Part shown: positions 2,962 to 62,985 of the stretch, one piece after another
How the letters are laid out: the number at the start of each line of letters is the position of its first letter
Numbering within the stretch: the first letter of the stretch is position 1
Virus record (IMG/VR): IMGVR_UViG_3300029305_000181
Coordinates: 3,097 to 67,096 of that record
DNA length: 64,000 bases
Direction: 5' to 3' (one strand)
From: a virus
Lineage: Duplodnaviria; Caudoviricetes
Notes under the pieces: model-generated
The model's database searches: none
What the model saw: only the letters and a program-made list of their open reading frames with translations
What the model was told of the DNA's origin: nothing
Translations under genes and position numbers: made by a program

Positions 2962-3297
2962 ATGGCGAAAGTAAAAGCGCCTGGTCCAACTAAGAAGATT
3001 AGACCCGCGTTATCTCCGGAAGCAAGACAGAATCAGTTGATATCTTTAGCTATTGATCTGGTAGAGCAGCGATTAATTGACGGAACTGCCTCTGCTCAGG
3101 AGACTGTGCATTTTCTAAAGCTCGCAACCCCAAAGTATAAGGTCGAGCAAGAAATTCTCGAGCGGGAGAAAGATTTAGTTAGCGCTAAGACTGAGGCTAT
3201 TAAGTCTACTGAAGAGCTTAAAGGGATTTATACCGAAGCGATTAAAGCTATGCGAAACTATAGCGGACAAGGTGATCCGGATGAGTACGAGAATTAA
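2962..3297 (+). CDS. Helical protein upstream of HNH; possible terminase small subunit
   Basis: SD AAGGAGG; position at the start of the packaging module; no diagnostic motif. Confidence 0.4.
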   Translation: MAKVKAPGPTKKIRPALSPEARQNQLISLAIDLVEQRLIDGTASAQETVHFLKLATPKYKVEQEILEREKDLVSAKTEAIKSTEELKGIYTEAIKAMRNYSGQGDPDEYEN

Positions 3298-3703
3298 AAG
3301 ATATTCTGAGCTGATACAATTACCAACTTTTAAAGAGCGCTATGAATACTTGAAACTTGATGGGCGAGTCGGTGAAGACACTTTCGGATTCGATCGTTAC
3401 CTCAATCAGATATTTTACCGTTCGCAAAAATGGAAGCGCATTCGTAATCAGGTAATCGTAAGAGACAATGGATGCGATCTTGGAATTGAAGGTTACGAAA
3501 TTAATGAGCGAATATTAATTCATCATATGAATCCGGTATCGCTTAAAGACGTCGAAGAAGAAACCGAATTTCTTTTAGATCCCGAGTATCTTATATCTAC
3601 AACTCACAATACTCACAACGCTATACACTACGGCGATTCGGGTCTACTCATTTTAGATCCGATTGTTAGAACAAAAAACGATACGTGTCCGTGGAGACAC
3701 TAA
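3281..3703 (+). CDS. HNH endonuclease (packaging-associated type)
   Basis: VRDNGCDLG...LIHHMNP...THNTHNAIH motifs; located before terL. Confidence 0.8.
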   Translation: MSTRIKRYSELIQLPTFKERYEYLKLDGRVGEDTFGFDRYLNQIFYRSQKWKRIRNQVIVRDNGCDLGIEGYEINERILIHHMNPVSLKDVEEETEFLLDPEYLISTTHNTHNAIHYGDSGLLILDPIVRTKNDTCPWRH

Positions 3704-3722: not shown

Positions 3723-4085
3723 ATGAGTCACAAGAACTATAATAATTATTCCAAGCCTTATAGCCGTCCCGTTGAACCTGAAACTGTGATCGAGGAAGTC
3801 GAGACTATTCCGGTCGAGGAAACTCCCGAAGAGCCTTCCATGATCGAAGAGGCTCCCGTCGTTGAGTCCACTCCTATGATGGAAGTTACCGGCGTTGTTG
3901 TCGATTGCTCCAAGCTTAACATGCGATTCGAGCCTAGCTCTGATGCTGAGATTATGTGTACTCTGATTCGCGGCACCGAAGTGGTCATCGATGAAGCTGA
4001 GTCCACCGACGAGTTCTATGCAGTTTGCACTCCCGCCGGCATGGAAGGCTATTGTATGCGCAAGTACATTGAAGTCAATCCCTAA
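3723..4085 (+). CDS. Pro/Glu-rich N-terminus plus SH3b-like domain
   Basis: LNMRFEPSSDAEIMCTLIRGTEVVI...EGYCMRKYI resembles bacterial SH3 (LNVR...GWV) domains. Confidence 0.6.
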   Translation: MSHKNYNNYSKPYSRPVEPETVIEEVETIPVEETPEEPSMIEEAPVVESTPMMEVTGVVVDCSKLNMRFEPSSDAEIMCTLIRGTEVVIDEAESTDEFYAVCTPAGMEGYCMRKYIEVNP

Positions 4086-4096
4086 GGAGATTAATT

Positions 4097-4663
4097 ATGA
4101 CTAGTATACTGACATCAACTAAGAAACTTGCCGGTATGACAGAAGAGTACAAAGCCTACGACGATCAAATCATCATGTACATCAACAGTACGCTTCTCAG
4201 ATTAAAGCAGATTGGTGTCGGTCCTTCTGAAGGTTTTGTAGTTACCGGCTCTAGTGAAACCTGGGAACAGTTTATTCCTTATGATAAGTTTCTTCGTGAA
4301 TCGACTAAGGCATACATGGGCGCCAAGGTCCGAATGCAGTTCGATCCGCCTTCTGCCTCTTCTGCGCTAGAAGCGCTTAAGCAGATGATTAGCGAATACG
4401 AGTGGTGCCTTAATGCTGAAGCGGAAACTAAGATCATTGAATCTAGTCCCGAAGGTAAGACTATGGTCGGTATCGTTGTAGATTGTGTGAAGCTGGTTAT
4501 TCGAGTTAAGCCTGATCCTGATGCTGAAATCATAGGAGACATTCCTAAGGGAGCTCAGGTGATCATCAATGAAGATGAGTCGAATTCCGAGTTCTACATG
4601 GTGGTAACTTCTTCCGGTCTTAAGGGTTACTGTGATAAGGATTACATCGAGATTAAAACTTAA
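4097..4663 (+). CDS. Head-tail connector/adaptor-like protein fused to a C-terminal SH3b-like domain
   Basis: N-terminal SILTSTKKL...DDQIIMYIN...LKQIGVGP...VRMQFDPP helical adaptor pattern; C-terminus paralogous to 3723-4085. Confidence 0.55.
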   Translation: MTSILTSTKKLAGMTEEYKAYDDQIIMYINSTLLRLKQIGVGPSEGFVVTGSSETWEQFIPYDKFLRESTKAYMGAKVRMQFDPPSASSALEALKQMISEYEWCLNAEAETKIIESSPEGKTMVGIVVDCVKLVIRVKPDPDAEIIGDIPKGAQVIINEDESNSEFYMVVTSSGLKGYCDKDYIEIKT

Positions 4664-4668
4664 AAAGA

Positions 4669-5795
4669 AAGGAGGAATTCAAAATGGCGAACATTATTCC
4701 TATCGAGGTCAAGAAGACATGTTGTGATATGTTCGCAAGTGGGACCTCCTTAAGAGAAATCTATGATGATTACTTCGTCAACCAGTTTGATATTCCTCAA
4801 TCGTATAAAGCTTTTACAACTTCTATAAAGCGTTGGATGGATAAGAAGTATACAGAAGATCTCACTCTTGAGAAGGGTACTTATGAAGGCTTCATCGCTC
4901 ATGATGCTACGGTCCAGGTTAGCAAGGATGGCGAGATAATCCAGGCATGGATTAAGCAGCGAGCGGGAGACATTGATCTTGAGGAATTCCTGACCGGTGT
5001 CCGTGAAGCGGTCGAACCTTATGAGTATTCCGAGAAGACTTTCGAATCTTCTGACAGAATGCTCGAGATTCCTCTGTTCGATATGCATTGGGGTATAGCC
5101 TTTATGGATTACTATGAGCCGGTGCTTAATGAGATTCTCGGCATCATCAAAAGTCGGCACTGGGATTGCATCGTGATTCCTTTCGGTCAGGACTTCTTCC
5201 ACAATGACAGCATTGTAAATGGACAGACTACCAAGGGTACTGTAATTGAAAAAGTTGATATGGTTAGAGCCGTACGAGATGGCAAGCAGTTTATGTATGC
5301 TATCATCGATGCGGCTCTTTCTCATTCCAGCGAAGTGTCGGTTATGTACACCGCCGGTAACCATGACCGAAGCATCTCGTGGATGTTTGTCCAGGTGCTG
5401 CTCGAGCGCTATGGTAGCATCATTGTCGACGACTCTATTACTAATAGAAAAGTCGTAAGCTATGGCAAGAATGCTATCATGGTGACTCATGGCGATTCGA
5501 AGCAGGCTACTCCTAAGAATCTCGCTCAGATCTTCCCCGTTAGTTTCCCTACCGAGTTTGCTAATGCGACTGTTCGAGAGGTTCATGCGGGTCATCTTCA
5601 TCGTGAAGCTGAGTCTGACATTCATGGAGTTATGATCCGCAGACTGTCTACAGGCAGTAAGACCGATGAGTGGTCTGATAAGGAAGATTTCGTCGGTTCA
5701 CATAAAAGATTTATGCTGTTCGAATGGGATCTGAACAAGCTTAAATCCATCCATTACATATGAACATTCTCAGGGGAAGGAGGAATTCAAAATGG
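4669..5795 (+). repeat. 19-bp perfect direct repeats AAGGAGGAATTCAAAATGG flanking the phosphoesterase gene
   Basis: Copies at 4669-4687 and 5777-5795. Confidence 0.9.
4684..5763 (+). CDS. Calcineurin-like metallophosphoesterase
   Basis: Motifs DMHWG, GQDFFH, AGNHD, THGD, GHLH in canonical order. Confidence 0.85.
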   Translation: MANIIPIEVKKTCCDMFASGTSLREIYDDYFVNQFDIPQSYKAFTTSIKRWMDKKYTEDLTLEKGTYEGFIAHDATVQVSKDGEIIQAWIKQRAGDIDLEEFLTGVREAVEPYEYSEKTFESSDRMLEIPLFDMHWGIAFMDYYEPVLNEILGIIKSRHWDCIVIPFGQDFFHNDSIVNGQTTKGTVIEKVDMVRAVRDGKQFMYAIIDAALSHSSEVSVMYTAGNHDRSISWMFVQVLLERYGSIIVDDSITNRKVVSYGKNAIMVTHGDSKQATPKNLAQIFPVSFPTEFANATVREVHAGHLHREAESDIHGVMIRRLSTGSKTDEWSDKEDFVGSHKRFMLFEWDLNKLKSIHYI

Positions 5796-6304
5796 AGTAT
5801 GAATTATACCATCACGGTATCAAAGGCATGAAGTGGGGCGTTAGACGTTATCAGAACAAGGATGGCTCTCTGACCCCGGCTGGTAGAAAGCGCTACGATC
5901 GCGATATTAGCGAGAATAATGCTAAGAAGAAAGATAATCGCATTGTCATAGACGGCCCCGATGCTCGTCGTTGGGTTAAAGAAGATATTAGTAGAACTAA
6001 GAAAGTAGTAGATTCTACTTCCGATATGACTCGGCAGCTTAAGAACATCGAAAGTAGTACCAGAGGATCTTCTAAAAAACAAAAGCTGGATCTTAGTGGC
6101 ATGAGTGATCAGGAGCTTAGAGATCGTATTAATCGTGCCAATCTCGAGCGACAGTATAATGACTTATTCGCTCCGGAGCAAGCTCCTAAAATTTCTAAAG
6201 GCAGAGAGGTAGCTAGTTCTATACTCGATACCGCTGGCACTGTTCTTGCGGTTGGCAGCTCTGCTTTAGCTATAGCTCTTGCTATTAAGGAACTTAAGGG
6301 GTGA
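5792..6304 (+). CDS. HHGIKGMKWGVRR-leader protein 1 (DUF7211-like), hydrophobic C-terminal helix
   Basis: N-terminal YELYHHGIKGMKWGVRRYQNKDGSLTPAGRKRY. Confidence 0.75.
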   Translation: MEYELYHHGIKGMKWGVRRYQNKDGSLTPAGRKRYDRDISENNAKKKDNRIVIDGPDARRWVKEDISRTKKVVDSTSDMTRQLKNIESSTRGSSKKQKLDLSGMSDQELRDRINRANLERQYNDLFAPEQAPKISKGREVASSILDTAGTVLAVGSSALAIALAIKELKG

Positions 6305-6311
6305 ACCCAAA

Positions 6312-8078
6312 ATGGCATTATCAAACACTGCCACCCCGAAATACTATGGCATGTTTCGTGATGCCGTAATTCGAGGTGAAATACCTGTATGCGAAACCGT
6401 CTCTATGGAGATGAACCGAATAGATGCTCTAATCGCTAACCCTGGAATTTGGTATGACGACCAAGCTATCCAGGGTTTTGTTAATTTCTGCGAGAACGAG
6501 CTCACTCTTACTGATGGCTCAGACTTGCGGTTACTTGACACATTCAAGTTATGGGCAGAGCAGATATTCGGATGGTACTACTTTGTAGACCGAAGCGTAT
6601 ACGTACCCGATCCTAGCGGTCATGGCGGCCGTTATGTGAAGAAAACTATCAAGAAGAGACTTGTAAACAAGCAGTATCTTATCGTTGCTCGTGGTGCTGC
6701 TAAGTCTATGTATGCATCTTGTATTCAGAATTTCTTTCTGAACATCAACACTGCTACTACGCATCAGATTACTACTGCGCCTACTATGAAACAGGCGGAA
6801 GAGGTATTGTCGCCCATTCGTACTGCTATCACTCGAGCTAGAGGGCCTTTGTTCAAATTCTTAACTGAGGGTTCTCTCCAGAATACTACCGGTTCCAGAG
6901 CCGAACGTATGAAACTCGCTTCTACTAAGAAGGGTATTGAAAACTTCCTTACTAATTCTCTATTAGAGATTCGCCCCATGTCTATCGATAAGCTTCAGGG
7001 CTTACAGGTCAAGTGCGCCACGGTTGATGAATGGCTTTCTGGCGACATTAAGGAAGATCCTATTGGCGCTCTCGAACAGGGTGCCACCAAGGAACAGGGC
7101 GGTGCCGACCAGGACAACGACTATCTGATCGTTGCTATTAGTTCCGAAGGTACTGTCCGAAACGGATGCGGCGATACAATCAAAATGGAGTTAATGGACA
7201 TTCTCAAAGGAGAATACCAGAATCCTCACGTCTCTATCTGGTGGTACAAGCTCGATTCTATCGATGAAGTAGCGGAGCCCGAGATGTGGCTTAAAGCTAA
7301 TCCGAATCTTGGTAAGACTGTTAGCTATGAAACTTACCAGCTCGATGTCGAGCGAGCTGAGAAAGCACCTGCTGTCAGAAACGATATTCTGGCTAAACGA
7401 TTCGGTATCCCGATGGAAGGTTATACATATTACTTCACTTATGAAGAAACCCTTCCGCATCGAAAAAAAGAGTTCTGGGGTATGCCGTGTGCACTTGGCG
7501 CCGACCTTTCGCAAGGCGACGACTTCTGTGCGTTCACGTTTATGTTCCCATTAACGAATGGATCGTTTGGCATAAAGACTCGAAACTATATCACTTCCAA
7601 TACTCTTATGAAACTCCCTTCGGCAATGCGTATGAAATACGACCAATTTGTCAAAGAAGGTAGTCTGATAGTTCTCGAAGGAACCGTGTTGGACATGATG
7701 GAAGTTTACGAGGATCTTGATGACCATATTGTTCGAACCGAATACGATGTTCGTTGCTTCGGTTACGACCCATATAACGCCCAAGCATTTGTTAAACGTT
7801 GGGTTGACGAGAATGGCCCATTTGGTGTCGAGAAAGTTATTCAGGGTGCTAAAACGGAGTCTGTACCTCTCGGCGAATTGAAGAAACTTTCTGAAGAGAG
7901 AATGCTCTTGTTTGATGAAGAGCTTATGACCTTTGCAATGGGCAACTGTATCACTCTCGAAGATACAAATGGTAACCGTAAACTTTGGAAGAAGCGATAT
8001 GATCAGAAGATCGACGCCGTTGCCGCTATGATGGATGCTTATGTCGCTTACAAACTTAATAAAGACGCCTTTGAGTAA
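6312..8078 (+). CDS. terL: Terminase large subunit
   Basis: Walker A VARGAAKS, Walker B ATVDEW, nuclease GADLS...KIDAVAAMMDA; start reassigned to MALSNT at 6312. Confidence 0.92.
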   Translation: MALSNTATPKYYGMFRDAVIRGEIPVCETVSMEMNRIDALIANPGIWYDDQAIQGFVNFCENELTLTDGSDLRLLDTFKLWAEQIFGWYYFVDRSVYVPDPSGHGGRYVKKTIKKRLVNKQYLIVARGAAKSMYASCIQNFFLNINTATTHQITTAPTMKQAEEVLSPIRTAITRARGPLFKFLTEGSLQNTTGSRAERMKLASTKKGIENFLTNSLLEIRPMSIDKLQGLQVKCATVDEWLSGDIKEDPIGALEQGATKEQGGADQDNDYLIVAISSEGTVRNGCGDTIKMELMDILKGEYQNPHVSIWWYKLDSIDEVAEPEMWLKANPNLGKTVSYETYQLDVERAEKAPAVRNDILAKRFGIPMEGYTYYFTYEETLPHRKKEFWGMPCALGADLSQGDDFCAFTFMFPLTNGSFGIKTRNYITSNTLMKLPSAMRMKYDQFVKEGSLIVLEGTVLDMMEVYEDLDDHIVRTEYDVRCFGYDPYNAQAFVKRWVDENGPFGVEKVIQGAKTESVPLGELKKLSEERMLLFDEELMTFAMGNCITLEDTNGNRKLWKKRYDQKIDAVAAMMDAYVAYKLNKDAFE

Positions 8079-8091
8079 GGAGGTGAGCGAT

Positions 8092-9369
8092 ATTAGCAAT
8101 TATATTTTATACCATCATGGCATTAAAGGCATGAAGTGGGGCGTACGTCGATATCAGAATCAGGACGGTTCTTTAACCCCTGCGGGAAAGAAACGGTATT
8201 ACAATAATCCAGATCTTATCACGCAAAAGTCAGAATTAGATGCTGCTAAAAAGAGGATGAATGAATCTAGCAAAGTTGCGTCTAAAGCGTCAAACCGATA
8301 TCAAAATGTACCTACTCCTAAAAACTATCAAGTATACGAAGAAGCGCAAAAGCAATTTATATCGGATAGAACTAATTATAAGAATCTCAAACTGAAATAC
8401 GATACGAATAAAGAAGTTTCTAGAATTCGTGAAAAAGATATAGATTTTTCCGATAAATCCAAACATCGTTTGAAGCTAGAAGAACAGTATAAAAAGATGG
8501 GCATGAATGATGAAGAAGCTCAGGCTGCTGCTAACAATCGTATACGTACAGAAAAGCTGTTAGCTGCGTCCGCTGCGCTTACCATCGGTGCTTGTGCGGC
8601 ATATGCAGCTAATAAAGCCATTAAGAATAGAGTCGACGGTGTAATTAAGTCTGGTGATATTCTTCAGCGAATCGAGATGGAAGACACTAATGGTAAGCTT
8701 CACGATATGTTTTATGTCGCTAAAGGTAAACATGACAGTAAACGATATGAAGGTCTTCTTGGCATGGCTAGAAAGAATGAGACTGGTCATGCATATATGA
8801 TGAAGCTCGAAGCAATGGCGGATGTAAAAGTCGCATCTAAAGATAATGCGTCTAAGATATTCGGAGAACTTTATAAAAATGATCCAGAATTTAGATCTAC
8901 AGCTTCTAAATATGTCGGCGAGCATTTCTCGGGTCGTAATAAACTAGACCCCACAAATCTTAGCGATAGAAACATTAAGAAATTGTATGAAAATTTCAAT
9001 TCGAACATAATGTTTGTTCGTGAAGACGGTAAGGGCATAGATAAGCAATTTTATAGTAAGTTAAAATCCGCTGGTTATGGCGCTATTCAGGATATTAACG
9101 ATATGAAATTTAGCGGCTATAATGCTAAAAATCCTCTTATAATCTTTGATAACTCCAAGGGTAATATACTGGTTAAATCCTATAATGAGATGACAGAAAA
9201 TATTGGTAAAAAGGGCACCATCGAATCGATTAAAACGATTGGCGAGAGCTATACTAAAGAGTTTCTTAATAAAGGTTTACCGATGACAGCTATAGGTTTA
9301 ACTGGGGCTACAGCAGTTACATATAATAGCGATCCTAACAAGCAATACAAAAACTATAAAAGTAGGTGA
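8092..9369 (+). CDS. HHGIKGMKWGVRR-leader protein 2 with large C-terminal domain (possibly ADP-ribosyltransferase-like fold)
   Basis: Leader motif; SD AGGAGGTG followed by ATT at 8092 aligning with the paralogue's ATG; start uncertain (GTG 8083 is an alternative). Confidence 0.7.
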   Translation: MSNYILYHHGIKGMKWGVRRYQNQDGSLTPAGKKRYYNNPDLITQKSELDAAKKRMNESSKVASKASNRYQNVPTPKNYQVYEEAQKQFISDRTNYKNLKLKYDTNKEVSRIREKDIDFSDKSKHRLKLEEQYKKMGMNDEEAQAAANNRIRTEKLLAASAALTIGACAAYAANKAIKNRVDGVIKSGDILQRIEMEDTNGKLHDMFYVAKGKHDSKRYEGLLGMARKNETGHAYMMKLEAMADVKVASKDNASKIFGELYKNDPEFRSTASKYVGEHFSGRNKLDPTNLSDRNIKKLYENFNSNIMFVREDGKGIDKQFYSKLKSAGYGAIQDINDMKFSGYNAKNPLIIFDNSKGNILVKSYNEMTENIGKKGTIESIKTIGESYTKEFLNKGLPMTAIGLTGATAVTYNSDPNKQYKNYKSR

Positions 9370-9374
9370 TATTT

Positions 9375-10001
9375 ATGTCCGATTATGTTTTATACCACCA
9401 CGGTATTAAAGGCATGCGCTGGGGTGTACGTCGATATCAGAACAAAGACGGCTCTCTGACTCCGGCTGGTAAGAAGCGTCAGGCTAAGCAGGATTACCGT
9501 AACGCTAAAGATTCTGCGTTTGCTAAATATGAGAAAAGCATCGGCTCTATCGAAAAAGGTTATAAGCGTGGTCAGATGCTTTCTAAAAAAGATCAGGCTC
9601 GGGAAGAAGCAGCTGAGAATGAATACAATAAAGCTGCCGCGAAAGCCAAAAGCGATTATAAGAAGGCCAAGGCAGATATTAAGTCTGAAAAACGAGCTGC
9701 TAGACTACAGAAAAAGTATCCTGGAAAGAGCATAGAAAGCATCGATAAATACTATGATGAACAGAAAAAGTCGAGAAAGATGTTGAGGACAGCTGCCGGA
9801 GCTAAAATAGTCAGTCGTGCTATGAACGGAATGGGTCAGAGCTTGTACAATAAGTATAAAGATGGCGCTTCTCCGGCTGGTGTAAATGCTATAAGAGGTC
9901 TTGGTTACGCTTCTAAAGCTTTGAAACTTATCGGTGATGCTACTACGGTATCTGCGTATGCTAATCAATTTAAAGCGTATCAAGAGTTCATGCTGAGTTG
10001 A
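9375..10001 (+). CDS. HHGIKGMRWGVRR-leader protein 3, basic helical cargo
   Basis: MSDYVLYHHGIKGMRWGVRRYQNKDGSLTPAGKKR. Confidence 0.75.
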   Translation: MSDYVLYHHGIKGMRWGVRRYQNKDGSLTPAGKKRQAKQDYRNAKDSAFAKYEKSIGSIEKGYKRGQMLSKKDQAREEAAENEYNKAAAKAKSDYKKAKADIKSEKRAARLQKKYPGKSIESIDKYYDEQKKSRKMLRTAAGAKIVSRAMNGMGQSLYNKYKDGASPAGVNAIRGLGYASKALKLIGDATTVSAYANQFKAYQEFMLS

Positions 10002-10019: not shown

Positions 10020-11273
10020 ATGGGTTTAATGGATAGACTCCAGCATGGCTGGAATGCTTTTGTAAACAATCGAGATCCTACGGAGTATCGCGATAGCGGT
10101 TATACATATTCTTATAGACCTGATCGTCCTCGTCTTTCTCGAGGCAACGAGCGTTCTATTGTGAATTCCATCTATAACCGTGTCGCTATGGACGTTGCGG
10201 CGATCAACATGATGCATTGCAAGCTCGATGATAATGGTCGATTCGATTCCGTTATCAATTCTAAGCTTAATAATTGTTTAACTCTTGAAGCCAATATCGA
10301 TCAGACAAGCAGAGCCTTCATTCAGGATGTAGTTGTGTCTATGTTCGATGAAGGTCATGTCGCAATCGTTCCTATCGATACTACTATTAATCCTAAAGAT
10401 AGTGGATCTTACGATATTGTATCCATGCGAGTGGGTAAGATTCTTGAATGGAGACCTGCTCACATTAAGGTTCGAGTCTATAACGACCGAACCGGTCTTA
10501 AGGAAGAAATTATTGTTCCTAAGAAAAACGCGGCTATTATAGAGAATCCTCTGTATGCCGTTGTTAACGAACCTAACTCTACTGTTCAGCGTCTGATCCG
10601 AAAGCTTAACCTTCTGGATGCTATCGATGAACAGAGCGGTTCTGGAAAGCTCGACTTGATCATTCAGTTACCTTATGTGATCAAGAGTGAAGCTCGTCGT
10701 CAACAGGCCGAAAGTCGGCGTAAAGATATAGAGATGCAGTTAGCTGGTTCTAAGTATGGCATCGCCTATACAGATGGCACCGAGCGTATTACTCAGCTTA
10801 ATCGACCCGTCGAGAACAACCTTTTGAAGCAGATTGAATACTTAACGAGCATGGCTTACGCCCAGTTAGGAATCACTCAGAGCGTAATGGATGGTACTGC
10901 CGATGAGAAGACTATGCTGAATTACTACGATCGAACTATCGAACCGATTATCTCGGCAATCGTTGATGAAATGAAACGTAAGTTTCTTACTAAAACTGCT
11001 AGATCCCAGTCGCAGTCGATTATCTATGTTCGTAATCCGTTCAAGCTCGTTCCGGTTAATGATCTTGCGGAAATTGCGGATAAGTTTACTAGAAATGAGA
11101 TCATGTCTTCTAACGAGATTCGTCAGATTATTGGCATGAAGCCTTCTAAAGATCCGAAGGCGGATCAGCTCGTTAATAGTAACTTGAATCAGCCTGAAGA
11201 AAAGGCTGCTCCTATCGACAAGACGAATGCGGTATCTAAGGAAGGAGAAGAAATTCAAAATGGAGATGTATGA
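10020..11273 (+). CDS. Portal protein (HK97-like)
   Basis: 417 aa between terL and protease; NSIYNRVAMDVA, GLTQSV-like and IMSSNEIRQIIG patterns. Confidence 0.88.
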   Translation: MGLMDRLQHGWNAFVNNRDPTEYRDSGYTYSYRPDRPRLSRGNERSIVNSIYNRVAMDVAAINMMHCKLDDNGRFDSVINSKLNNCLTLEANIDQTSRAFIQDVVVSMFDEGHVAIVPIDTTINPKDSGSYDIVSMRVGKILEWRPAHIKVRVYNDRTGLKEEIIVPKKNAAIIENPLYAVVNEPNSTVQRLIRKLNLLDAIDEQSGSGKLDLIIQLPYVIKSEARRQQAESRRKDIEMQLAGSKYGIAYTDGTERITQLNRPVENNLLKQIEYLTSMAYAQLGITQSVMDGTADEKTMLNYYDRTIEPIISAIVDEMKRKFLTKTARSQSQSIIYVRNPFKLVPVNDLAEIADKFTRNEIMSSNEIRQIIGMKPSKDPKADQLVNSNLNQPEEKAAPIDKTNAVSKEGEEIQNGDV

Positions 11274-13095
11274 TTTTAGCGGCTGGGCAACTAAGGCTAA
11301 TCTTAAGTGCTCCGATGGTCTTACTATCCTGAAGGACGCGTTTAAGCACAATAATGGCCAGACTGTTCCTCTTGTGTGGAATCATCAGCATAATGATCCC
11401 AATGAAGTTCTCGGTCATGCCCTGCTTGAGAACCGCGAAGAAGGCGTTTATGCCTATTGTAAGTTCAATGACACCGAATCCGGTCGCACCGCTAAGCTCC
11501 TTGTACAGCATGGCGATGTGGATGCACTGTCTATCTATGCTAACCAGCTCAAGAAGCAGAATAACTTCGTCTCTCACGGTAATATTCGTGAGGTGAGTCT
11601 GGTTCTTGCCGGTGCTAATCCCGGCGCGTTTATTGATTCTGTTATCAAGCATGGCGAAGAGTCTGATGAAGAGGCGGTTATTTATACCGATGAAACCATC
11701 AATCTGTATCATGCTGAAATTAAATCCGAAGAATCTAAGAAGGAAGAAAATAAGGAGGAAAAGAACATGGCTGAGGAAACCAAGCAGGTTAAGCCTGAGA
11801 GTGAAGAGACCGTCGAGGACGTGTTTAATACTCTTAATGAGAAGCAGAAGACCGTTGTGTATGCTATTATCGGTCAGGCTGTTGAAGATGCTAAGAATGA
11901 AGACAATGATGAGGAGGAATCTGAAATGAAGCAGAATGTTTTTGAGAACGATATGAAGGATCAGGGCCATGTTCTGAGCCATGCTGATCAGGAGGCCATC
12001 ATTGCTATGGCTAAGCAGTCCAATGTTGGTAGCTTTAAGCAGGCTCTCCAGCTCTTTGCCGAGGAGAGTGGCGCTATTCAGCACTCTGAGGATGGCGTGG
12101 GTATTTTCGAGGATTACGGTGTGCTCTTCCCCGAGCTTGAGCTTCTGAAGAAGGGCGAGCCCGAAACCCTGTACAAGTATGATCAGAGCTGGGTTACTCC
12201 CGCACTGGCAAAGATTCACAAGAGCCCCTTCAGCCGTATTCGTACCCGCTTTGCTGATGCTCGTACCGCTGAGCTGAAGGCAAAGGGCTACCAGAACAAG
12301 GGTGATCAGAAGACCATCATGGGTCAGATCAAGATGATCAACCGTGAGACCACCCCTCAGACTATCTACATCAAGGATGCTCTGCATCGTGATGACATCA
12401 TCGACATCACCGACTTCAGCATCGTTGACTATCAGTGGAAGCAGATGCGCATGGTACTGAACGAGACCATGGTTCTTGCAGCAATGGTTGGCGATCAGCG
12501 TGAGGATGGCGACCCCGATAAGATCAGTGAAGAGCACGTACGTCCTATCTGGAAGGACAACGATGAGTATACCATCCATACCGATGTTGACATCGCTGCC
12601 GCTAAGGCTGAGCTTCAGGGCTCCGACACCAGCGTACACTTCGGCGAGAACTACATCTATGCTGAATCCATCATCACCGCTGCTCTGTATTCTCGCGAGC
12701 AGTTCAAGGGTACCGGTACTCCCGACTTCTATTGCACTCCTCACCTGGTAAACGTAATGCTGCTCGCTCGTGACCTCAACGGCCGCCGCATCTACGACTC
12801 CAAGGCTGACCTGGCAAAGGCTCTGAACTGCAACTCCATCGTTGAGGTTGAGCAGTTCGAAGGTCTGACCAGAACTACCGAAGATGGCGACAAGAAGAAG
12901 CTCCTGGGTCTGTTCGTCAACCTGAACGACTACACCTTCGGTTCCACTCGTGGCGGCGAGATCACCCGCTTCGAGGACTTCGATATGGACTTCAACCTCA
13001 AGAAGTTCATGCTGGAAACCCGTCTGTCCGGCTCTCTCTACAAGCTGAAGTCTGCTATCGCTCTCGAGGAGCCTGTGGTTGAAGCTGCGGGCTAA
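11260..13095 (+). CDS. Prohead protease-scaffold-major capsid fusion
   Basis: N-terminal FSGWAT...PLVWNHQH...LSIYAN...REVSLV (HK97-type protease), acidic linker, capsid-like C-terminus with strong C-ending codon bias. Confidence 0.85.
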   Translation: MEMYDFSGWATKANLKCSDGLTILKDAFKHNNGQTVPLVWNHQHNDPNEVLGHALLENREEGVYAYCKFNDTESGRTAKLLVQHGDVDALSIYANQLKKQNNFVSHGNIREVSLVLAGANPGAFIDSVIKHGEESDEEAVIYTDETINLYHAEIKSEESKKEENKEEKNMAEETKQVKPESEETVEDVFNTLNEKQKTVVYAIIGQAVEDAKNEDNDEEESEMKQNVFENDMKDQGHVLSHADQEAIIAMAKQSNVGSFKQALQLFAEESGAIQHSEDGVGIFEDYGVLFPELELLKKGEPETLYKYDQSWVTPALAKIHKSPFSRIRTRFADARTAELKAKGYQNKGDQKTIMGQIKMINRETTPQTIYIKDALHRDDIIDITDFSIVDYQWKQMRMVLNETMVLAAMVGDQREDGDPDKISEEHVRPIWKDNDEYTIHTDVDIAAAKAELQGSDTSVHFGENYIYAESIITAALYSREQFKGTGTPDFYCTPHLVNVMLLARDLNGRRIYDSKADLAKALNCNSIVEVEQFEGLTRTTEDGDKKKLLGLFVNLNDYTFGSTRGGEITRFEDFDMDFNLKKFMLETRLSGSLYKLKSAIALEEPVVEAAG

Positions 13096-16548: not shown

Positions 16549-17319
16549 ATGAGCGTTACAGCTAAAGCAGTACTCGATGTTGCGAGAAGTTGGATTGGGT
16601 ATAGTGAAGCGAATGGTAAGTACAAAGAAATTCTGAAGATCTATAACAATAATACAAGTGGTTATGACATGACTAATTCAGACCCTTGGTGCGATTGCTT
16701 TGTATCTGCCGTAGCTATTAAAGCTGGTGCCGTCGACATTATCGGTACTGAAGTAGGTTGTGAGCGTCACATCGCTATCTTCAAGAAGCTTGGTATTTGG
16801 ATTGAAGATGGTAAGGTCAAGCCTCAAGTAGGCGACATTATTGTGTTTAACTGGGATGATAGCACCCAACCGAACGATGGTTTTGCCGACCATATTGGCT
16901 TTGTCGAAGCTATAAACGGTAATACTATTACCTGTATCGAGGGTAATATGAATGATGCTGTTGGCAGACGTAACATATACGCTGGCTGGGGGTACATTCG
17001 AGGTTATGCTAGACCCAAGTACGGGGCAAGCTCTAACACAACAACTAATACTACTAAAACGCAGACGGTAGCTACTAAGTCTACTGTTAAATGTACAGTT
17101 TCTATCAATCAACTTCAAAATGGAGATAAAGGCAATCAAGTCAAGGCTCTCCAGAAGCTTTTGATCAGCTATGGATATTCTTGCGGTAAATACAAGGATG
17201 ACGGCGAATTCGGTACAGATACTGAAGCTGCTGTTAAGAAGTATCAGAAAGCTAATAAGCTCGAAGTTGACGGCGTAGTTGGCATAAATACTTGGAATAA
17301 ACTTCTGGGCATTAAGTAA
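16549..17319 (+). CDS. Endolysin: CHAP domain + Thr-rich linker + peptidoglycan-binding domain
   Basis: PWCDCFVS...HIGFVE...IEGN (CHAP); VKALQKLL...DGEFG...VKKYQ...LEVDGVVG (PG_binding_1). Confidence 0.88.
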   Translation: MSVTAKAVLDVARSWIGYSEANGKYKEILKIYNNNTSGYDMTNSDPWCDCFVSAVAIKAGAVDIIGTEVGCERHIAIFKKLGIWIEDGKVKPQVGDIIVFNWDDSTQPNDGFADHIGFVEAINGNTITCIEGNMNDAVGRRNIYAGWGYIRGYARPKYGASSNTTTNTTKTQTVATKSTVKCTVSINQLQNGDKGNQVKALQKLLISYGYSCGKYKDDGEFGTDTEAAVKKYQKANKLEVDGVVGINTWNKLLGIK

Positions 17320-35893: not shown

Positions 35894-36664
35894 ATGATAT
35901 GTATGAATGCAAAGTTGTTACACCGTTCACGATTATTTGTAAAGAAAAATGCATCTACGATTCTAACAGGAATGGGAGCAGCCGGAGTAGTAGCCACTAC
36001 CGTGATGGCAGTAAAGGCTACGCCTAAAGCAATGGTTTTACTAGAGGCTGCTAAAGAAGAGAAAGGAGAGGAGTTAACCAAGCTCGAAAAAGTGTATGTA
36101 GCAGCACCGGTTTATATTCCAGCAGTATTGATTGGCGCTGGTACAATCGCCTGTATTTTTGGTGCTAATGCTTTGAATAAGCGTCAGCAGGCAGCTTTAA
36201 TGAGCGCTTATGCGTTACTTGATAACTCTTATAAAGAGTATAAGAAAAAAGTAGAAGACTTGTATGGCAAAGAAGTAGACGGCCATATCAAAGCGGAGAT
36301 TGCCAAAGATAAGTATGAGTTGTCTGATATTTTTACAGACGAAGACGCTCAATTATACTATGACGAGTACTCAGGTAGATACTTCGAGTCTACTGCTGCT
36401 AAGGTAAAACAGGCCGAGTATAATGTTAATCGGCTCTTACGAATGAAAGGTTATGCATGCCTTAACGATTTTTATGAAGAATTAGGAATGGAACTGATTT
36501 ATAGCGGATATGATTTAGGCTGGACTCCGTCATTTTTAGAGGAACATGCGTGGCAGTCATGGCTCGATTTCAACCATCAAAAAGTGATTTTAGATGATGG
36601 TTTAGAGGTTTATATTGTATCTTTCTATACCGATCCTACGCCTAATTTCTTAGACTTTGCTTAA
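35894..36664 (+). CDS. DUF6353-like protein, paralogue 1
   Basis: ILTGMGAAGVVATTVMAVKATPKA...YACLNDFYEELG...GWT; start may be 35903. Confidence 0.75.
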   Translation: MICMNAKLLHRSRLFVKKNASTILTGMGAAGVVATTVMAVKATPKAMVLLEAAKEEKGEELTKLEKVYVAAPVYIPAVLIGAGTIACIFGANALNKRQQAALMSAYALLDNSYKEYKKKVEDLYGKEVDGHIKAEIAKDKYELSDIFTDEDAQLYYDEYSGRYFESTAAKVKQAEYNVNRLLRMKGYACLNDFYEELGMELIYSGYDLGWTPSFLEEHAWQSWLDFNHQKVILDDGLEVYIVSFYTDPTPNFLDFA

Positions 36665-37058: not shown

Positions 37059-37838
37059 ATGAGCAAACCCACAGTTACAAAGTTTTTCAAAACCGTGCAG
37101 ACAAAGGTTACCCAGTATAGTCCTGAGATTCTTACGGGCATTGGTATTGCTGGTATGGTCACTACTACCGTTCTGGCAGTCAAAGCCACGCCTAAGGCCA
37201 TGCGACTTATTGAGGATTATAAGGAGTGCGTGCTTCTTGAAAATGAGGAGATCACACCTATCGATGCCGTGAAGGTTGCTTGGAAGCCTTATATTCCGGC
37301 AGTAGTTACAGGCGTATTCTCTACTGCGTGCCTTATCGGCGCCAACTCCGTTAACGCACGTCGCAATGCGGCTCTTGCTACGGCTTATAAGCTTTCCGAG
37401 ACAGCTTTCTCTGATTACAAGGCGAAGGTAATCGAGACTATCGGCGAAAAGAAGGAACAGGTAGTCCGAGACGAGGTGGCGAAGGAGCGAGTAGAAAAGA
37501 ATCCGGTTAGTAAGTCCGAAGTGATTATTACCGAAAAAGGTAATACGCTTTGTCTAGATGTTATTTCCGGTCGATATTTCAAATCCGATATTGATAAGAT
37601 TAAGAAAGCCGAGAATAAGCTTAATTATCAGCTTTTGACATCTGACTATGTTTCTCTTAACGAATTCTATAACGAACTCGGTTTAGATAACACTCGAATC
37701 GGAGATGAACTTGGTTGGAATGTGGTCAATGGACTTATTGAAATTCACTTCAGTTCTACGATTGCCGAGGACGGAACGCCGTGTATCGTAATTGATTATA
37801 GCGTGGCGCCTAACCGAAACTACAATAGATATTCTTAA
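37059..37838 (+). CDS. DUF6353-like protein, paralogue 2
   Basis: PEILTGIGIAGMVTTTVLAVKATPKA...YVSLNEFYNELG...LGW. Confidence 0.75.
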   Translation: MSKPTVTKFFKTVQTKVTQYSPEILTGIGIAGMVTTTVLAVKATPKAMRLIEDYKECVLLENEEITPIDAVKVAWKPYIPAVVTGVFSTACLIGANSVNARRNAALATAYKLSETAFSDYKAKVIETIGEKKEQVVRDEVAKERVEKNPVSKSEVIITEKGNTLCLDVISGRYFKSDIDKIKKAENKLNYQLLTSDYVSLNEFYNELGLDNTRIGDELGWNVVNGLIEIHFSSTIAEDGTPCIVIDYSVAPNRNYNRYS

Positions 37839-39234: not shown

Positions 39235-39546
39235 ATGATTGTAGCGCATACGGATATGAATCGTGTTGATAAATGGGATATGTCTATCGCAGATTATCCA
39301 GACAATAAACCCGATATGGTAAACCACCCCGCACATTATATTTCCAAGAAGGGCATCGAGGTTATCGATGTCATTGAAGCATTCACTGAGGACCTTAAGG
39401 GTATCGAAGCTACCGATACCGGTAATGTCATCAAGTATATTTGCCGTTGGCCTCATAAGAACGGCGTAGAAGACCTTAAGAAGGCTCGTTTCTATATCGA
39501 GCATCTCATTAATCATATTGAAAAGGAGACTAATAATCATGAATAA
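39235..39546 (+). CDS. DUF3310 family protein
   Basis: VNHPAHY...IEVIDVI...GNVIKYICRWPHKNGVEDLKKARFY. Confidence 0.85.
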   Translation: MIVAHTDMNRVDKWDMSIADYPDNKPDMVNHPAHYISKKGIEVIDVIEAFTEDLKGIEATDTGNVIKYICRWPHKNGVEDLKKARFYIEHLINHIEKETNNHE

Positions 39547-40471
39547 ACTTGAGATTGTAAACAAGGCTACTAGAACCTTCCATCGTGTCGGTTTCAAGCT
39601 TAAGAAGCATAGCCCTGAGATTCTGTCAGTAGTTGGTGCTGTCGGCGCCGTCACTGGTGCTGTTATGGCTTGTAAGGCCACTACTAAGGTTGGCGCTATT
39701 CTTGAGGATAGCAAGGAACAGATTGATATTATCCATCAGGGTATGGAAGACGGTCACGTTCGTGACGTGGATTATACTGAGGAAGACGGCAAGAAGGACC
39801 TTGCTATTGTCTATGCTCAGACCGGTCTTAAGGTTGCTAAACTGTATGCTCCTGCTGTAATTGTCGGCGCTGCCGGTATCGCTTGCATGCTTGGCTCTAC
39901 TAATATTCTGCGTAAGCGCAATGTTGCTATCGCAGCTGCTTATACGACTATCGATAAGAGCTTCAAGGAGTATCGTGGTCGTGTTATCGAGCGTTTCGGC
40001 GAAGAACTTGACCGTGAGCTTAAGTACAACATCAAGGCTATGAAGATCGAAGAGAAGGTCGTTGATGAGAACGGTAAGGAAAAGAAGGTAAAGAAGACTG
40101 TACAGGCTATTGATCCTACTAAGTATAGTGCTTATGCTCGTTTCTTTGATGACGGCTGCCTTGGTTGGGATAAGGACGCTGAACTGAATCTCTTCACTCT
40201 GCATCAGGTTCAGGAACATGCTAATGATCTGCTTAAGGCTCGTGGTCATCTGTTCCTTAATGAAGTGTACGATATGCTCGGTTTCAAGCGTACGAAGGCC
40301 GGTAATGTTGTTGGTTGGATTTACGACGAAGAGCATCCGATTGGCGATAACTACGTTGATTTCGGTATGTACAATCTTTATAACGAGAAGGCTCGTGACT
40401 TTGTGAACGGCTATGAGCGAGTTATTCTTCTTGACTTCAATGTGGACGGAGAGATTCTACATCTGATTTGA
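39539..40471 (+). CDS. DUF6353-like protein, paralogue 3
   Basis: KKHSPEILSVVGAVG...ACKATTK...LFLNEVYDMLG...VGW. Confidence 0.75.
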   Translation: MNKLEIVNKATRTFHRVGFKLKKHSPEILSVVGAVGAVTGAVMACKATTKVGAILEDSKEQIDIIHQGMEDGHVRDVDYTEEDGKKDLAIVYAQTGLKVAKLYAPAVIVGAAGIACMLGSTNILRKRNVAIAAAYTTIDKSFKEYRGRVIERFGEELDRELKYNIKAMKIEEKVVDENGKEKKVKKTVQAIDPTKYSAYARFFDDGCLGWDKDAELNLFTLHQVQEHANDLLKARGHLFLNEVYDMLGFKRTKAGNVVGWIYDEEHPIGDNYVDFGMYNLYNEKARDFVNGYERVILLDFNVDGEILHLI

Positions 40472-61160: not shown

Positions 61161-62303
61161 ATGCTGCTTACATATCAAAAGAAATTGAATGGGAGAAGTA
61201 TCGGCGTGGTGTTCGGTTCTTTCGCGCCTTTACATCAGGGTCATCTCGATTTGATAATGAGAGCAAAAAAGGAAAACGACGGTGGTTGTATTGTAATCGT
61301 GTGCGGTTATGACGGGGATAAAGGAGAGCCTCTAATGCCTCATAGTAAACGTTATCGATACGTACGTGAATTCTTTGCAGATGATGAACTCGTGGCAGTA
61401 TACGCGATAAACGATACCGAAAGTAGTCGGGCTCAGTATCCTGACGGCTGGGTTAGCTGGATGGAAGAGTTCGAAGATATTTGGAAAAAAGCGGTTATTC
61501 CAAGAGGACGATGCTATGACGAGGTATACTACCCCGAACGAGTCTGGTATGTTGGTGATGAAAACTACTACAATGACCTCATTAATATGTGGAACGAAAA
61601 AGCAGTTCTCGTCGATCGAGTAGCAGACAATCCTATCTCCGCTACAATGATTCGTCAGAACCCTATCAAACATTGGGATAAGATCGCTACTCCTTTCCGA
61701 AGAATTTTCAGTCATAACATCCTCGTCACTGGCACTGCTTCCGAAGGTAAGTCTATTCTTGTGAATGATCTCGGAAAGTATTTCAATGCCCCTCATAGTT
61801 GGGAGTGGCCTCGAGATTATATGGAAGAAAGCGGTGTTAGTGACTGGGAACTCGACGGGGCAGACTTTATCGCGTTTCTTGAAGGTCAGTATAACCTCAA
61901 TAAAAAGCTTATCAATTCTCCTGCAAATCATGGTGTGTTCTTCGCCGACAGTGATTCCATGACGACACGTATGTACGCCGAAATGTACGCTAAGGATGAT
62001 AAATTCACTATGACTATGGAAGAATTCGATAAGGTTGCTGTCGTTGCAGACGAACTTACCAGAAAGTCTCGATGGGATAAAATTTTTCTCGTAGCTCCTC
62101 ATGGCATATTCGTGGATGATCATTCTCGCTATATGGGACATGCTGATTTGAAGGAGCGAAAGGAGCTCTTTGATATTCTTTGCGAAGACATTAAGCGAAC
62201 GGGTAATTGGGATAAGGTTACTATTCTTTGTGGCAATTATTATGAAAACTTTATGGTCATTGTTAATTATGTAAAGGAGATTATGAATAATGGACGCAAT
62301 TAA
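61161..62303 (+). CDS. nadR: NadR-type NMN adenylyltransferase / nicotinamide riboside kinase (no HTH domain)
   Basis: FGSFAPLHQGH (HxGH), ISATMIR, P-loop GTASEGKS, FADSD. Confidence 0.88.
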   Translation: MLLTYQKKLNGRSIGVVFGSFAPLHQGHLDLIMRAKKENDGGCIVIVCGYDGDKGEPLMPHSKRYRYVREFFADDELVAVYAINDTESSRAQYPDGWVSWMEEFEDIWKKAVIPRGRCYDEVYYPERVWYVGDENYYNDLINMWNEKAVLVDRVADNPISATMIRQNPIKHWDKIATPFRRIFSHNILVTGTASEGKSILVNDLGKYFNAPHSWEWPRDYMEESGVSDWELDGADFIAFLEGQYNLNKKLINSPANHGVFFADSDSMTTRMYAEMYAKDDKFTMTMEEFDKVAVVADELTRKSRWDKIFLVAPHGIFVDDHSRYMGHADLKERKELFDILCEDIKRTGNWDKVTILCGNYYENFMVIVNYVKEIMNNGRN

Positions 62304-62985
62304 GAATTGGACTCTGAAGCATTTCTGGACCGGCTATAACACTTTCGAAAAACTGTTCCTGTTGTTCGGCGTACTTTTGCAAATTGTTGTGTTCATGATT
62401 ATTCCCGACACGCCTCTGAATATTATTGCCGGTTTGGCCGGAGTGGTATCGGTGGTTATGTGCGCTAAAGGACGTACGATGTTTTACTTTGTAGGCTTTA
62501 TTCAGACGTGCACATATTTGGTCCTAGCTTGGCAGAATAATTTCTATGGCGAAGTTCTTGAGAATCTCTTTTACTTTGTAACTATGATTTGGGGAATCTT
62601 CGTTTGGAAGAAAAATGAGGTTAAGAACGAAGACGGCACAGAAGATGTTTTGGCTAAGGTGTTTACCCCTTCTCAGTGGTTTTGGTCTATTTTCTGTACA
62701 ATTGTCGCTACTATTGTTATGGGATATTGGCTGAATAGTATCGGTAGTGCTCAGGCGTATACGGACGCTGCTACGAATGTTATGGCTATTTTTGCTCAGC
62801 TTCTTATGGTACGTCGTTATCGTGAGCAGTGGGTTTGGTGGCTGGTTATTGACGTGTTCTGCATTAAGCTGTGGTTTGTTGCTGGTAACTGGTCTATGGT
62901 CGCTATGTATATTTTCTGGACTGCTAATACTATTTACGGGTTTATTAACTGGAGTAAGCTTAATAAGATTCAGAATGATATTTAA
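62290..62985 (+). CDS. pnuC: PnuC nicotinamide riboside transporter
   Basis: Multi-TM; DAATNVMAIFAQLLMVRRYREQWVWWLVID; coupled to nadR. Confidence 0.88.
   Translation: MDAIKNWTLKHFWTGYNTFEKLFLLFGVLLQIVVFMIIPDTPLNIIAGLAGVVSVVMCAKGRTMFYFVGFIQTCTYLVLAWQNNFYGEVLENLFYFVTMIWGIFVWKKNEVKNEDGTEDVLAKVFTPSQWFWSIFCTIVATIVMGYWLNSIGSAQAYTDAATNVMAIFAQLLMVRRYREQWVWWLVIDVFCIKLWFVAGNWSMVAMYIFWTANTIYGFINWSKLNKIQNDI

Follow-up and report, generated by a model that had tools for sequence, protein, structure and literature searches.

Why should three proteins encoded around the large terminase gene of a bacteriophage, differing over most of their length, begin with the same short peptide? The question is raised by a stretch of 64,000 nucleotides (hereafter the window), which covers bases 3097–67096 of a complete 67,096-bp genome with direct terminal repeats, IMG/VR record IMGVR_UViG_3300029305_000181. 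The three genes, named here P1 (5792–6304, plus strand, 170 amino acids), P2 (8092–9369, plus strand, 425 amino acids) and P3 (9375–10001, plus strand, 208 amino acids, lysine-rich), encode what their sequences indicate to be paralogous members of DUF7211, already catalogued by Pfam (PF23847) as a family of unknown function. The answer that we favour, with a probability of about one half, is that the common peptide is a docking tag for proteins that are packaged in the head of the phage and enter the host by injection. Proteins of this kind are a phage's first move against host defences, and they are well understood in phages T4, P1, N4 and P22/T7 only.

The common leader is 33 residues long and reads YxLYHHGIKGM[KR]WGVRRYQNxDGSLTPAGxKR. 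It occupies residues 3–35 of P1 (5798–5896), 4–36 of P2 (8101–8199) and 4–36 of P3 (9384–9482), each on the plus strand, and the three-way alignment of the proteins shows 35 invariant columns, nearly all within the first 34 residues. A six-frame scan of the window finds exactly three GM[KR]WG sites, those of P1–P3. Run over the whole 67,096-bp record, the Pfam model PF23847 gives three matches over its cut-off, and none in 14 control genomes; with 38.4, 37.8 and 36.7 bits for P1, P2 and P3 against a cut-off of 27 bits, all three belong to the family. Over the 33 codons, each pair of leaders differs by 10–16 synonymous and 3–4 non-synonymous changes, which corresponds to proportions of synonymous differences (pS) of 0.56–0.89 and of non-synonymous differences (pN) of 0.07–0.10, and nucleotide identity drops from 76–80% within the leader to 26–35% over the following 99 nucleotides. 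Since divergence is much higher at synonymous than at non-synonymous sites, it is the peptide that is under selection. The same divergence of synonymous sites rules out recent gene conversion as the source of the shared leader. An earlier, sequence-only reading of this DNA had reported a common N-terminal peptide in the genes that begin at 5792, 8092 and 9375 and had seen selection on the protein, not on the DNA; both statements hold.

That reading had also called the C-termini unrelated. They mostly differ, but a second shared element is present. PHROG profiles 32444 and 24711 align 150–190 residues of all three proteins, and profiles of the P1 and P2 types are collinear over 139 columns (hhalign probability 99.7%). 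Without their leaders, these two types still align over 53 columns (probability 71%, E 3.7e-5), which comprise an R-x-x-L-E-x-Q-Y stretch, followed by a hydrophobic helix rich in Ala, Gly and Ser. P1 is laid out as the leader, a basic linker, an S-D-x-E-L...R-x-x-L-E-R-Q-Y element and the C-terminal hydrophobic helix (residues 147–165; 6230–6286, plus strand; mean Kyte-Doolittle hydropathy 1.88), which is conserved in the alignment of the P1 type. P1 is thus a minimal module, and P2 the same module, with its own hydrophobic helix at about residues 155–174 (8554–8613, plus strand; hydropathy 1.47), to which a C-terminal domain has been added. P3 is a lysine-rich variant of the module that has no strong hydrophobic segment. 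The P2 start codon is likely to be the ATT at 8092, where its paralogues have ATG: a ribosome-binding site, taaggaggtga, lies 6 nucleotides upstream, and a start at the in-frame ATG at 8035, which lacks one, would make P2 overlap the end of the terminase gene.

P1 and P2 have thousands of full-length relatives each. At E ≤ 0.001, 7,934 of 8,000 scored candidates are retained for P1 (with 56–98% identity among the 120 matches listed) and 4,602 of 8,000 for P2. P3 is the variable member: among the 120 matches listed, three non-self proteins cover at least 94% of the query, at 33–39% identity, and its C-terminal half has few relatives; in a clustering of 166 open reading frames (ORFs) it falls in a cluster of three members. 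A scan of P1–P3 with NCBIfam gave nothing meaningful, and the P1-type profile met nothing credible among all PDB sequences (best E 0.11).

What does P2 carry at its C-terminal end? The AlphaFold2 model of the whole protein, built from a 38-row alignment, combines a poorly modelled tag (predicted local distance difference test, pLDDT, 49–68), a confident helical hairpin (residues 40–115), a long helix (140–180) and a globular part (183–366). Delimited as residues 178–372 (8623–9207, plus strand) and folded alone, the globular domain reaches a pLDDT of 93 and a predicted template modelling score of 0.88. The prediction assigns it to the ADP-ribosyltransferase (ART) superfamily, closest to the ART-PolyVal, RES and diphtheria-toxin types, this being an assignment of fold only. 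With the whole P2 model, the VIA-align comparison was swamped by the helical hairpin (37–117) and uninformative. With the domain alone, run against 48,161 PDB representatives, nearly all of the 50 rows listed are, by their titles, ADP-ribosyltransferase or RES-toxin folds. MbcT comes first (Z 7.6, 137 amino acids, root-mean-square deviation 4.2), followed by chain B of the pre-ejectosome of cyanophage A4 (Z 7.1, 147 residues, deviation 4.8) and by the diphtheria-toxin family (Z 6.0–6.4), then, in later rows, by SAIP, ParT (5.5), Xre-RES (5.3), NatT, PARPs (about 4), Tne2 and Rhs toxins. It is the consistency of this list that leads us to the fold; the Z values themselves are middling.

Other comparisons of the domain go the same way. 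In the PDB, the best Foldseek match is 9k3a_B, residues 1419–1609 (E 8e-4), and MbcT is found at 0.04. In BFVD, the closest entries come from the same phage group and are uncharacterised (E 1e-9 to 4e-23); they are followed by proteins that bear the label 'Large polyvalent protein associated domain' and by others called 'ART-PolyVal-like' (E 2.4e-3 to 6e-3). A search by language-model features (Atlas) returns ART-PolyVal at 0.93 (18 of 30 hits) and AcrIF11_ADP_ribosyl clusters at 0.91. Residues K186, G188, Y208, D215, Y219, S249, Y299, N303, D334 and D337 are conserved in the alignment of the domain, and the spacing of Y208 and Y219 is Y-X10-Y, which we take to be a signature of the diphtheria-toxin and PARP class. 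As for the catalytic signature, H-Y-E or R-S-E, superposition placed no conserved His or Arg, or Glu. As an observation apart, a gene for a nicotinamide-nucleotide adenylyltransferase (phrog_3462) adjoins, at 61161–62985, one for a PnuC-like transporter of nicotinamide mononucleotide (phrog_1880); this salvage pair for nicotinamide adenine dinucleotide (NAD) deserves notice beside P2, an ADP-ribosyltransferase-fold and possibly NAD-using protein of the same phage.

Where do such tagged proteins reside in other genomes? By its gene content, the phage is a temperate siphovirus (it has a tape-measure protein, Dit, a major tail protein and, on the minus strand, a large serine recombinase), and DNA and protein similarity places it with Lactococcus phage 1706 and Faecalibacterium phage FP_oengus, together with Rhodococcus phages ReqiPepy6 and ReqiPoco6 and phages of Gordonia (cluster DJ), Arthrobacter and Streptomyces. 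Passages of a preprint (bioRxiv 10.1101/842583) describe an ancestry common to this group across phyla. In species-representative genomes, the motif scan finds mostly Clostridia, including a chromosome of Faecalibacterium prausnitzii and assemblies of Blautia, Eubacterium ramulus and Roseburia. Our sample of loci, all from one lineage, numbers 147: 80 IMG/VR relatives, fetched through the large terminase gene terL, and 67 genome loci. They hold 331 DUF7211 ORFs with 343 motif copies, 0–9 per locus, and 328 of the 331 ORFs are on the same strand as terL.

In the window, terL (6312–8078, plus strand; Pfam TerL_nuclease 8e-33; phrog_9 7e-109) lies between P1 and P2. It starts with ATG at 6312, or alternatively with TTG at 6279, and the 3' end of P1 overlaps or abuts this start. 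P3 is followed by the gene for the portal protein (10020–11273, plus strand; Pfam Phage_portal 5.6e-16; phrog_12), then by one for a prohead protease of the S78 type fused through an acidic linker to the major capsid protein (11227–13095, plus strand; Pfam Peptidase_S78; phrog_3270 1e-203); its homologue in Gordonia phage Kenosha bears the annotation 'major capsid and protease fusion protein'. Scans of whole records find five copies of the motif in Kenosha, seven in ReqiPoco6, one in FP_oengus, two in 1706 and eight in ReqiPepy6, and all 23 fall in the region that starts about 1 kb upstream of terL and ends at the portal gene. In the 80 IMG/VR relatives, 88 ORFs are upstream of terL, 57 between terL and portal, and none downstream of portal. 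The placement in the packaging operon around terL, as first claimed, is therefore borne out, with copies confined to the head-assembly module. Seventy-five loci extend far enough upstream, and in 60 of them a DUF7211 ORF ends at the terL start; 67 loci include the portal gene as well, and 40 of these have at least one such ORF between terL and portal. In FP_oengus, the single copy is found there, after terL and before portal. In a survey of 85 sources (the 80 viral loci plus the window and four named phages), five loci lack a copy, and these are short or cut near terL. Copy number ranges from 0–1 to 9 among close relatives with 69–85% identical TerL.

The largest array seen has nine DUF7211 ORFs around terL, on an 11,026-bp contig (L108) of a Lachnospiraceae bin. 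Among relatives, the portal protein is 49–76% identical, and the protease-capsid fusion 37–70%; this is unusual, and it may reflect additional partners that bind the portal. Over the 67 genome loci and 80 viral loci, co-occurrence does not separate candidate partners of the tag, since the terL, portal and capsid fusion genes are the same in all of them. Prediction of a complex between the protease-capsid fusion and residues 1–60 of P1 scored 0.00 in two runs made with no controls, which speaks neither for nor against binding.

In the family at large, 47,963 representative clusters match a profile of 36 columns, made from 61 motif segments, at E ≤ 0.001, and 6,851 still do so at E ≤ 1e-10. The core of the tag spans about 17 residues, L-x-H-[YFHW]-G-[VI]-[KL]-G-M-[KR]-W-G-V-R-[RK], in which the His, the Gly, the Gly-Met and the Trp-Gly do not vary, be it among 122 seed copies or among 269 internal ones; the flank is acidic on the N-terminal side and basic on the C-terminal side. 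The extension Y-Q-N-x-D-G-S-L-T-P-A-G, found in the window phage, belongs to a subset of the family only. The best 150 representatives are polyproteins of 197–1,569 amino acids with two motifs in 36 cases, three in 81, four in 31 and five in two. Their motifs are spaced by a median of 207 amino acids, the size of the stand-alone genes, and 118 of the 150 have their first motif in the initial 50 residues. The same units thus exist either as adjacent genes or as head-to-tail fusions. An L-E-x-x-Y element is present in 45 of 449 polyprotein units, and in the examples printed it is in the last one. For the divergent polyproteins, retrieval of the locus context yielded no locus for P0243 and three for P0247. 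The motif is also internal in ReqiPoco6 gp015 and Kenosha gp13. The description as an N-terminal leader is hence correct for P1–P3, but too narrow for their relatives, where the motif may be internal or repeated two to five times.

What follows the tag is highly diverse. Once the motif is masked, the attached parts of the 331 ORFs fall into 99 clusters, 84 of which are singletons (an earlier, smaller clustering gave 57 clusters from 166 ORFs). When 44 long relatives are scanned with Pfam, a 2H (LigT-like) phosphoesterase appears N-terminal of the motif in three (Kenosha gp13, ReqiPoco6 gp015 and a protein of locus L057), a papain-fold Gln_amidase toxin domain C-terminal of it in two, and a sub-threshold P-loop match in one; the two Gln_amidase proteins were called by a custom hidden Markov model of the motif, not by Pfam DUF7211 at E ≤ 0.001. 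Among the best 41 polyproteins, five have a GNAT domain, six a 2H domain, two a Gln_amidase domain and one a sub-threshold phasin match, and 27 have DUF7211 only; one recognisable enzyme domain each stands beside two to five tags. In the three 2H proteins, the enzyme is fused upstream of an internal motif with a P1-type tail, directly before terL (L004, which is Kenosha gp13, at 1089–2798; L005, which is ReqiPoco6 gp015, at 140–1753; L057 at 4651–5910). All three fusions are candidate packaged enzymes that would degrade 2'-5' or cyclic nucleotides.

The diversity of cargo in relatives, which the sequence-only reading had proposed to survey, is therefore real, and its idea of interchangeable effectors is sustained by the number of clusters and by the enzyme and toxin domains, whose kinds are familiar from phage effectors that are packaged in heads or injected. 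It does not extend to P1: 123 of the 147 loci have this type, in most cases immediately upstream of terL, and 45 have the P2 type. The P1 gene is a conserved core gene, not interchangeable cargo.

A short peptide under strong selection, carried by many unrelated, fast-changing and enzyme-bearing proteins of the head module, matches the pattern of the capsid-targeting sequence (CTS) of phage T4, and likewise that of MuF toxins and of polyvalent proteins, and this is why we read the tag as a linear docking motif. The tag would recruit into the assembling procapsid, through some receptor inside the head, each unit of 150–250 residues that it heads; the unit, perhaps after cleavage, would then remain in the mature head until infection, when it would exit together with the DNA. 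P1 would be the conserved core unit, maybe an anchor, or an element for exit or for membrane insertion; P2 would add an ADP-ribosyltransferase-fold enzyme whose action, like that of T4 Alt or AcrIF11, would take place in the cell just infected, and P3 would be a fast-evolving lysine-rich accessory unit.

Three hints go in this direction. Firstly, the poor modelling of the tag beside well-folded parts fits a motif that folds on its partner. Secondly, orf7 of Lactococcus phage 1706, which carries two motif copies, bears in GenBank the label 'structural protein', the basis of which is unverified. Thirdly, leaders resemble each other more within a genome (0.502) than between genomes (0.431), a value reached by none of 300 label shuffles; relatedness of the genomes inflates this evidence, which is modest. 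Extended to a very large clade of siphophages of gut Clostridia and soil Actinobacteria, the reading becomes that of a portable capsid-loading tag, similar in function to the T4 sequence or to the cargo peptides of encapsulins but with no relation in sequence to either, by means of which a changeable arsenal is packed for injection, and we propose this wider view tentatively, at somewhat less than even odds. The arsenal would comprise ADP-ribosyltransferases, 2H phosphodiesterases (which might destroy cyclic-nucleotide defence signals), acetyltransferases and deamidases, all injected ahead of gene expression, and with one tag per unit cargo could be added, fused into polyproteins or freely swapped.

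Several points weigh against the docking of injected proteins. Encapsidation, cleavage and ejection of P1–P3 are steps that we infer. The label of 1706 orf7 is the only hint that may be experimental, and the 'virion structural protein' labels of ReqiPepy6 and ReqiPoco6 were given by similarity to 1706 gp07 only. Leaders of same-genome paralogues surpass those of orthologues in 77% of genome pairs for P1, but in 48% for P2. The motif is internal in many proteins, hence it is no classical N-terminal signal. As to the enzyme, no Pfam family, ART-PolyVal (PF18760) included, matches the P2 domain at E ≤ 0.1, and this adds to the middling fold scores. The P1 type occupies the usual position of a small terminase, directly before terL, and profile scans identified no small terminase elsewhere in the window. 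P1, P2 and P3 are strongly basic (net charge +10, +24 and +25), which would also suit binding to DNA. Finally, the hydrophobic helices of P1 and P2 would be equally in place in membrane proteins that the infected cell makes and that act within it, and ReqiPepy6 gp020 is indeed annotated as a 'hypothetical membrane protein'.

These helices and this annotation, to which the label 'Membrane protein' of the homologue in Arthrobacter phage Qui may be added, are what one would expect if the proteins were not packaged at all. They would then be late membrane or cytoplasmic proteins at work in the producing cell, with a role in superinfection exclusion, in the timing of lysis or in host takeover, or else toxins released by lysis, and the motif would be an element for oligomerization or envelope binding. 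For MuF-type toxins, too, a role as weapons that lysis sets free has been proposed (PMC5576092). Yet the copies are strictly in the region from terL to portal, not in lysis or early modules; P3 has no strong hydrophobic segment; the motif sits right at the N-terminus with no signal peptide before it; and the label of 1706 orf7, whatever its basis, reads 'structural protein'. We consider this explanation unlikely.

Another reading starts from the polyproteins. The motif begins every unit and recurs at gene-sized spacing in chains of two to five, the same units may be separate or fused, and the capsid protein of the phage has a protease fused to it: the motif could thus be chiefly a recognition or cleavage signal of the prohead (S78) protease, marking the boundaries of units, with targeting entrusted to another element, such as the L-E-x-Q-Y helix. 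Against this, the 269 internal copies share no conserved pattern of upstream residues beyond a general acidic patch, an invariant core of ten residues far exceeds, as a matter of general knowledge, what a protease site usually needs, and, as the stand-alone motif begins 2–10 residues after the start codon, a cut there would release nothing useful. As the chief function of the motif, a protease signal seems to us rather improbable; it could coexist with docking, just as the targeting sequence of T4 is both a target signal and cleaved.

The position of P1 invites a third explanation, in which the P1 type serves to package DNA, be it as the small terminase that is missing or as an accessory of terminase or portal, DUF7211 being a module that binds DNA, TerL or the portal. 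P1 is small and basic, with a central helix, it overlaps or abuts the start of terL, a position kept in the 60 of 75 loci mentioned above, no small terminase is recognised in the window, and TerL and portal are unusually conserved, the latter when compared with the capsid fusion. For P1 itself, Pfam, PHROG and NCBIfam give no small-terminase match, and its position before terL fits. But up to nine paralogues in one locus, polyproteins of up to 1,569 amino acids with five motifs and fusions to toxin-like enzymes are unlike a terminase subunit. Moreover, the single DUF7211 gene of FP_oengus comes after terL, before the portal gene, and the 1706 protein is labelled as structural when, to our knowledge, terminase subunits are not virion components. 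We deem a role in packaging quite improbable. Equally improbable are internal structural head proteins, DNA-condensing or part of an inner body, in which the motif would drive self-assembly and enzymatic fusions would be secondary: their very basic net charges (+10 to +25), the long helical hairpins of P2 and the core status of P1 would suit such a role, but the high turnover of the attached parts (84 of 99 clusters being singletons) and the repeated gain of enzymes point to an arms race, and copy number varies too widely among close relatives.

The remainder of the head module lies upstream of P1. It begins with genes for an HNH endonuclease (3272–3703) and an SH3 protein (3723–4085), and continues with a connector protein that has a C-terminal SH3 domain (4097–4663, plus strand; Pfam Phage_connect_2 2e-29, and SH3_3; phrog_4247), a homologue of 1706 gp06. 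The SH3 domains at the ends of these last two neighbours are very similar, which puts a domain of a cell-wall-binding type on the head-tail connector. Between the connector gene and P1 comes a metallophosphatase of 359 amino acids, or 'DNA repair exonuclease' (4684–5763; phrog_704). Elsewhere, the start of the window cuts the gene (1–2288) of a single-subunit RNA polymerase of YonO-like type (phrog_4291), which has a GADFDGD motif and a C-terminal helix-turn-helix. The endolysin gene (16549–17319) belongs to the tail module, directly upstream of the gene for the 1,782-amino-acid tape-measure protein, and not to a lysis cassette. Three paralogous genes of phrog_2152, of unknown function, are found in the early or replication region (35894–36664, 37059–37838 and 39518–40471).

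If the docking of injected proteins is true, one searchable motif marks head-packaged proteins in tens of thousands of uncultured phages of gut and soil, and gives a catalogue of candidate anti-defence and toxin enzymes, as well as a short tag for loading foreign proteins into the heads of siphophages of Gram-positive hosts. Cultured relatives are available in Lactococcus, Gordonia and Faecalibacterium, which makes a direct test of the claim possible. Effectors that are targeted to the head and injected are a known kind of protein. This particular tag, its repetition in polyproteins and its spread among siphophages of Gram-positive bacteria are not described in the literature that we searched: full-text searches found no paper on the DUF7211 motif (supplements and the papers on 1706 and the Rhodococcus phages being outside the coverage) and none on virion mass spectrometry of FP_oengus.

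Which known systems come nearest? The MuF proteins (SPP1 gp7, Mu gpF) are alike in that a conserved element of the head module, encoded beside terminase and portal, is fused to variable toxin or enzyme domains. In the human gut, MuF toxins are abundant among temperate phages of Firmicutes, and they are proposed to be delivered with the DNA (PMC5576092); 2H, PBECR and RelA/SpoT domains are reported as fusions to MuF or to portal (passages of PMC5512222). The two systems differ in that MuF is a folded domain of about 110 residues, when we have here a motif of 17–33 residues with a low-complexity module, and in that there are several tagged genes per genome instead of one. Phage_Mu_F (PF04233) has no match at E ≤ 0.1 in the 67-kb genome, and none in P1–P3, whereas five of the 14 control genomes match.

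Polyvalent proteins, in the passages of PMC5512222 (Iyer et al. 2017), are virion-associated, multi-domain and combine ART, GNAT, 2H and peptidase domains. The P2 domain resembles ART-PolyVal both by its fold and by language-model features, and DUF7211 polyproteins carry GNAT, 2H and deamidase domains. However, P1–P3 have at most one recognisable cargo domain each, when a polyvalent protein has at least two effector domains, and a tag repeated between units, as in DUF7211, was not encountered in those passages. In cyanophage A4, an ART-like domain of the pre-ejectosome (PDB 9k3a) is located inside the capsid, and it is this domain that is the best Foldseek match of that of P2. The match is of one domain, at 9–10% identity, and A4 is a podovirus with one giant ejection protein.

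The CTS of T4 remains the closest parallel. It directs its cargo, which includes some anti-defence proteins and one ADP-ribosyltransferase, into the prohead, to be injected with the DNA. It has no obvious sequence resemblance to DUF7211, no formal comparison having been made, and DUF7211 is longer, can be internal and is repeated within polyproteins. T4 is furthermore a myovirus with a separate scaffolding core, when in this siphovirus scaffold and protease are fused to the capsid protein. The internal proteins of T-even phages form a highly diverse set in which the CTS alone is conserved (passages of PMC3012670). In DUF7211, as in IPI, IPII, IPIII and Alt, a short conserved peptide heads otherwise dissimilar proteins of one phage.

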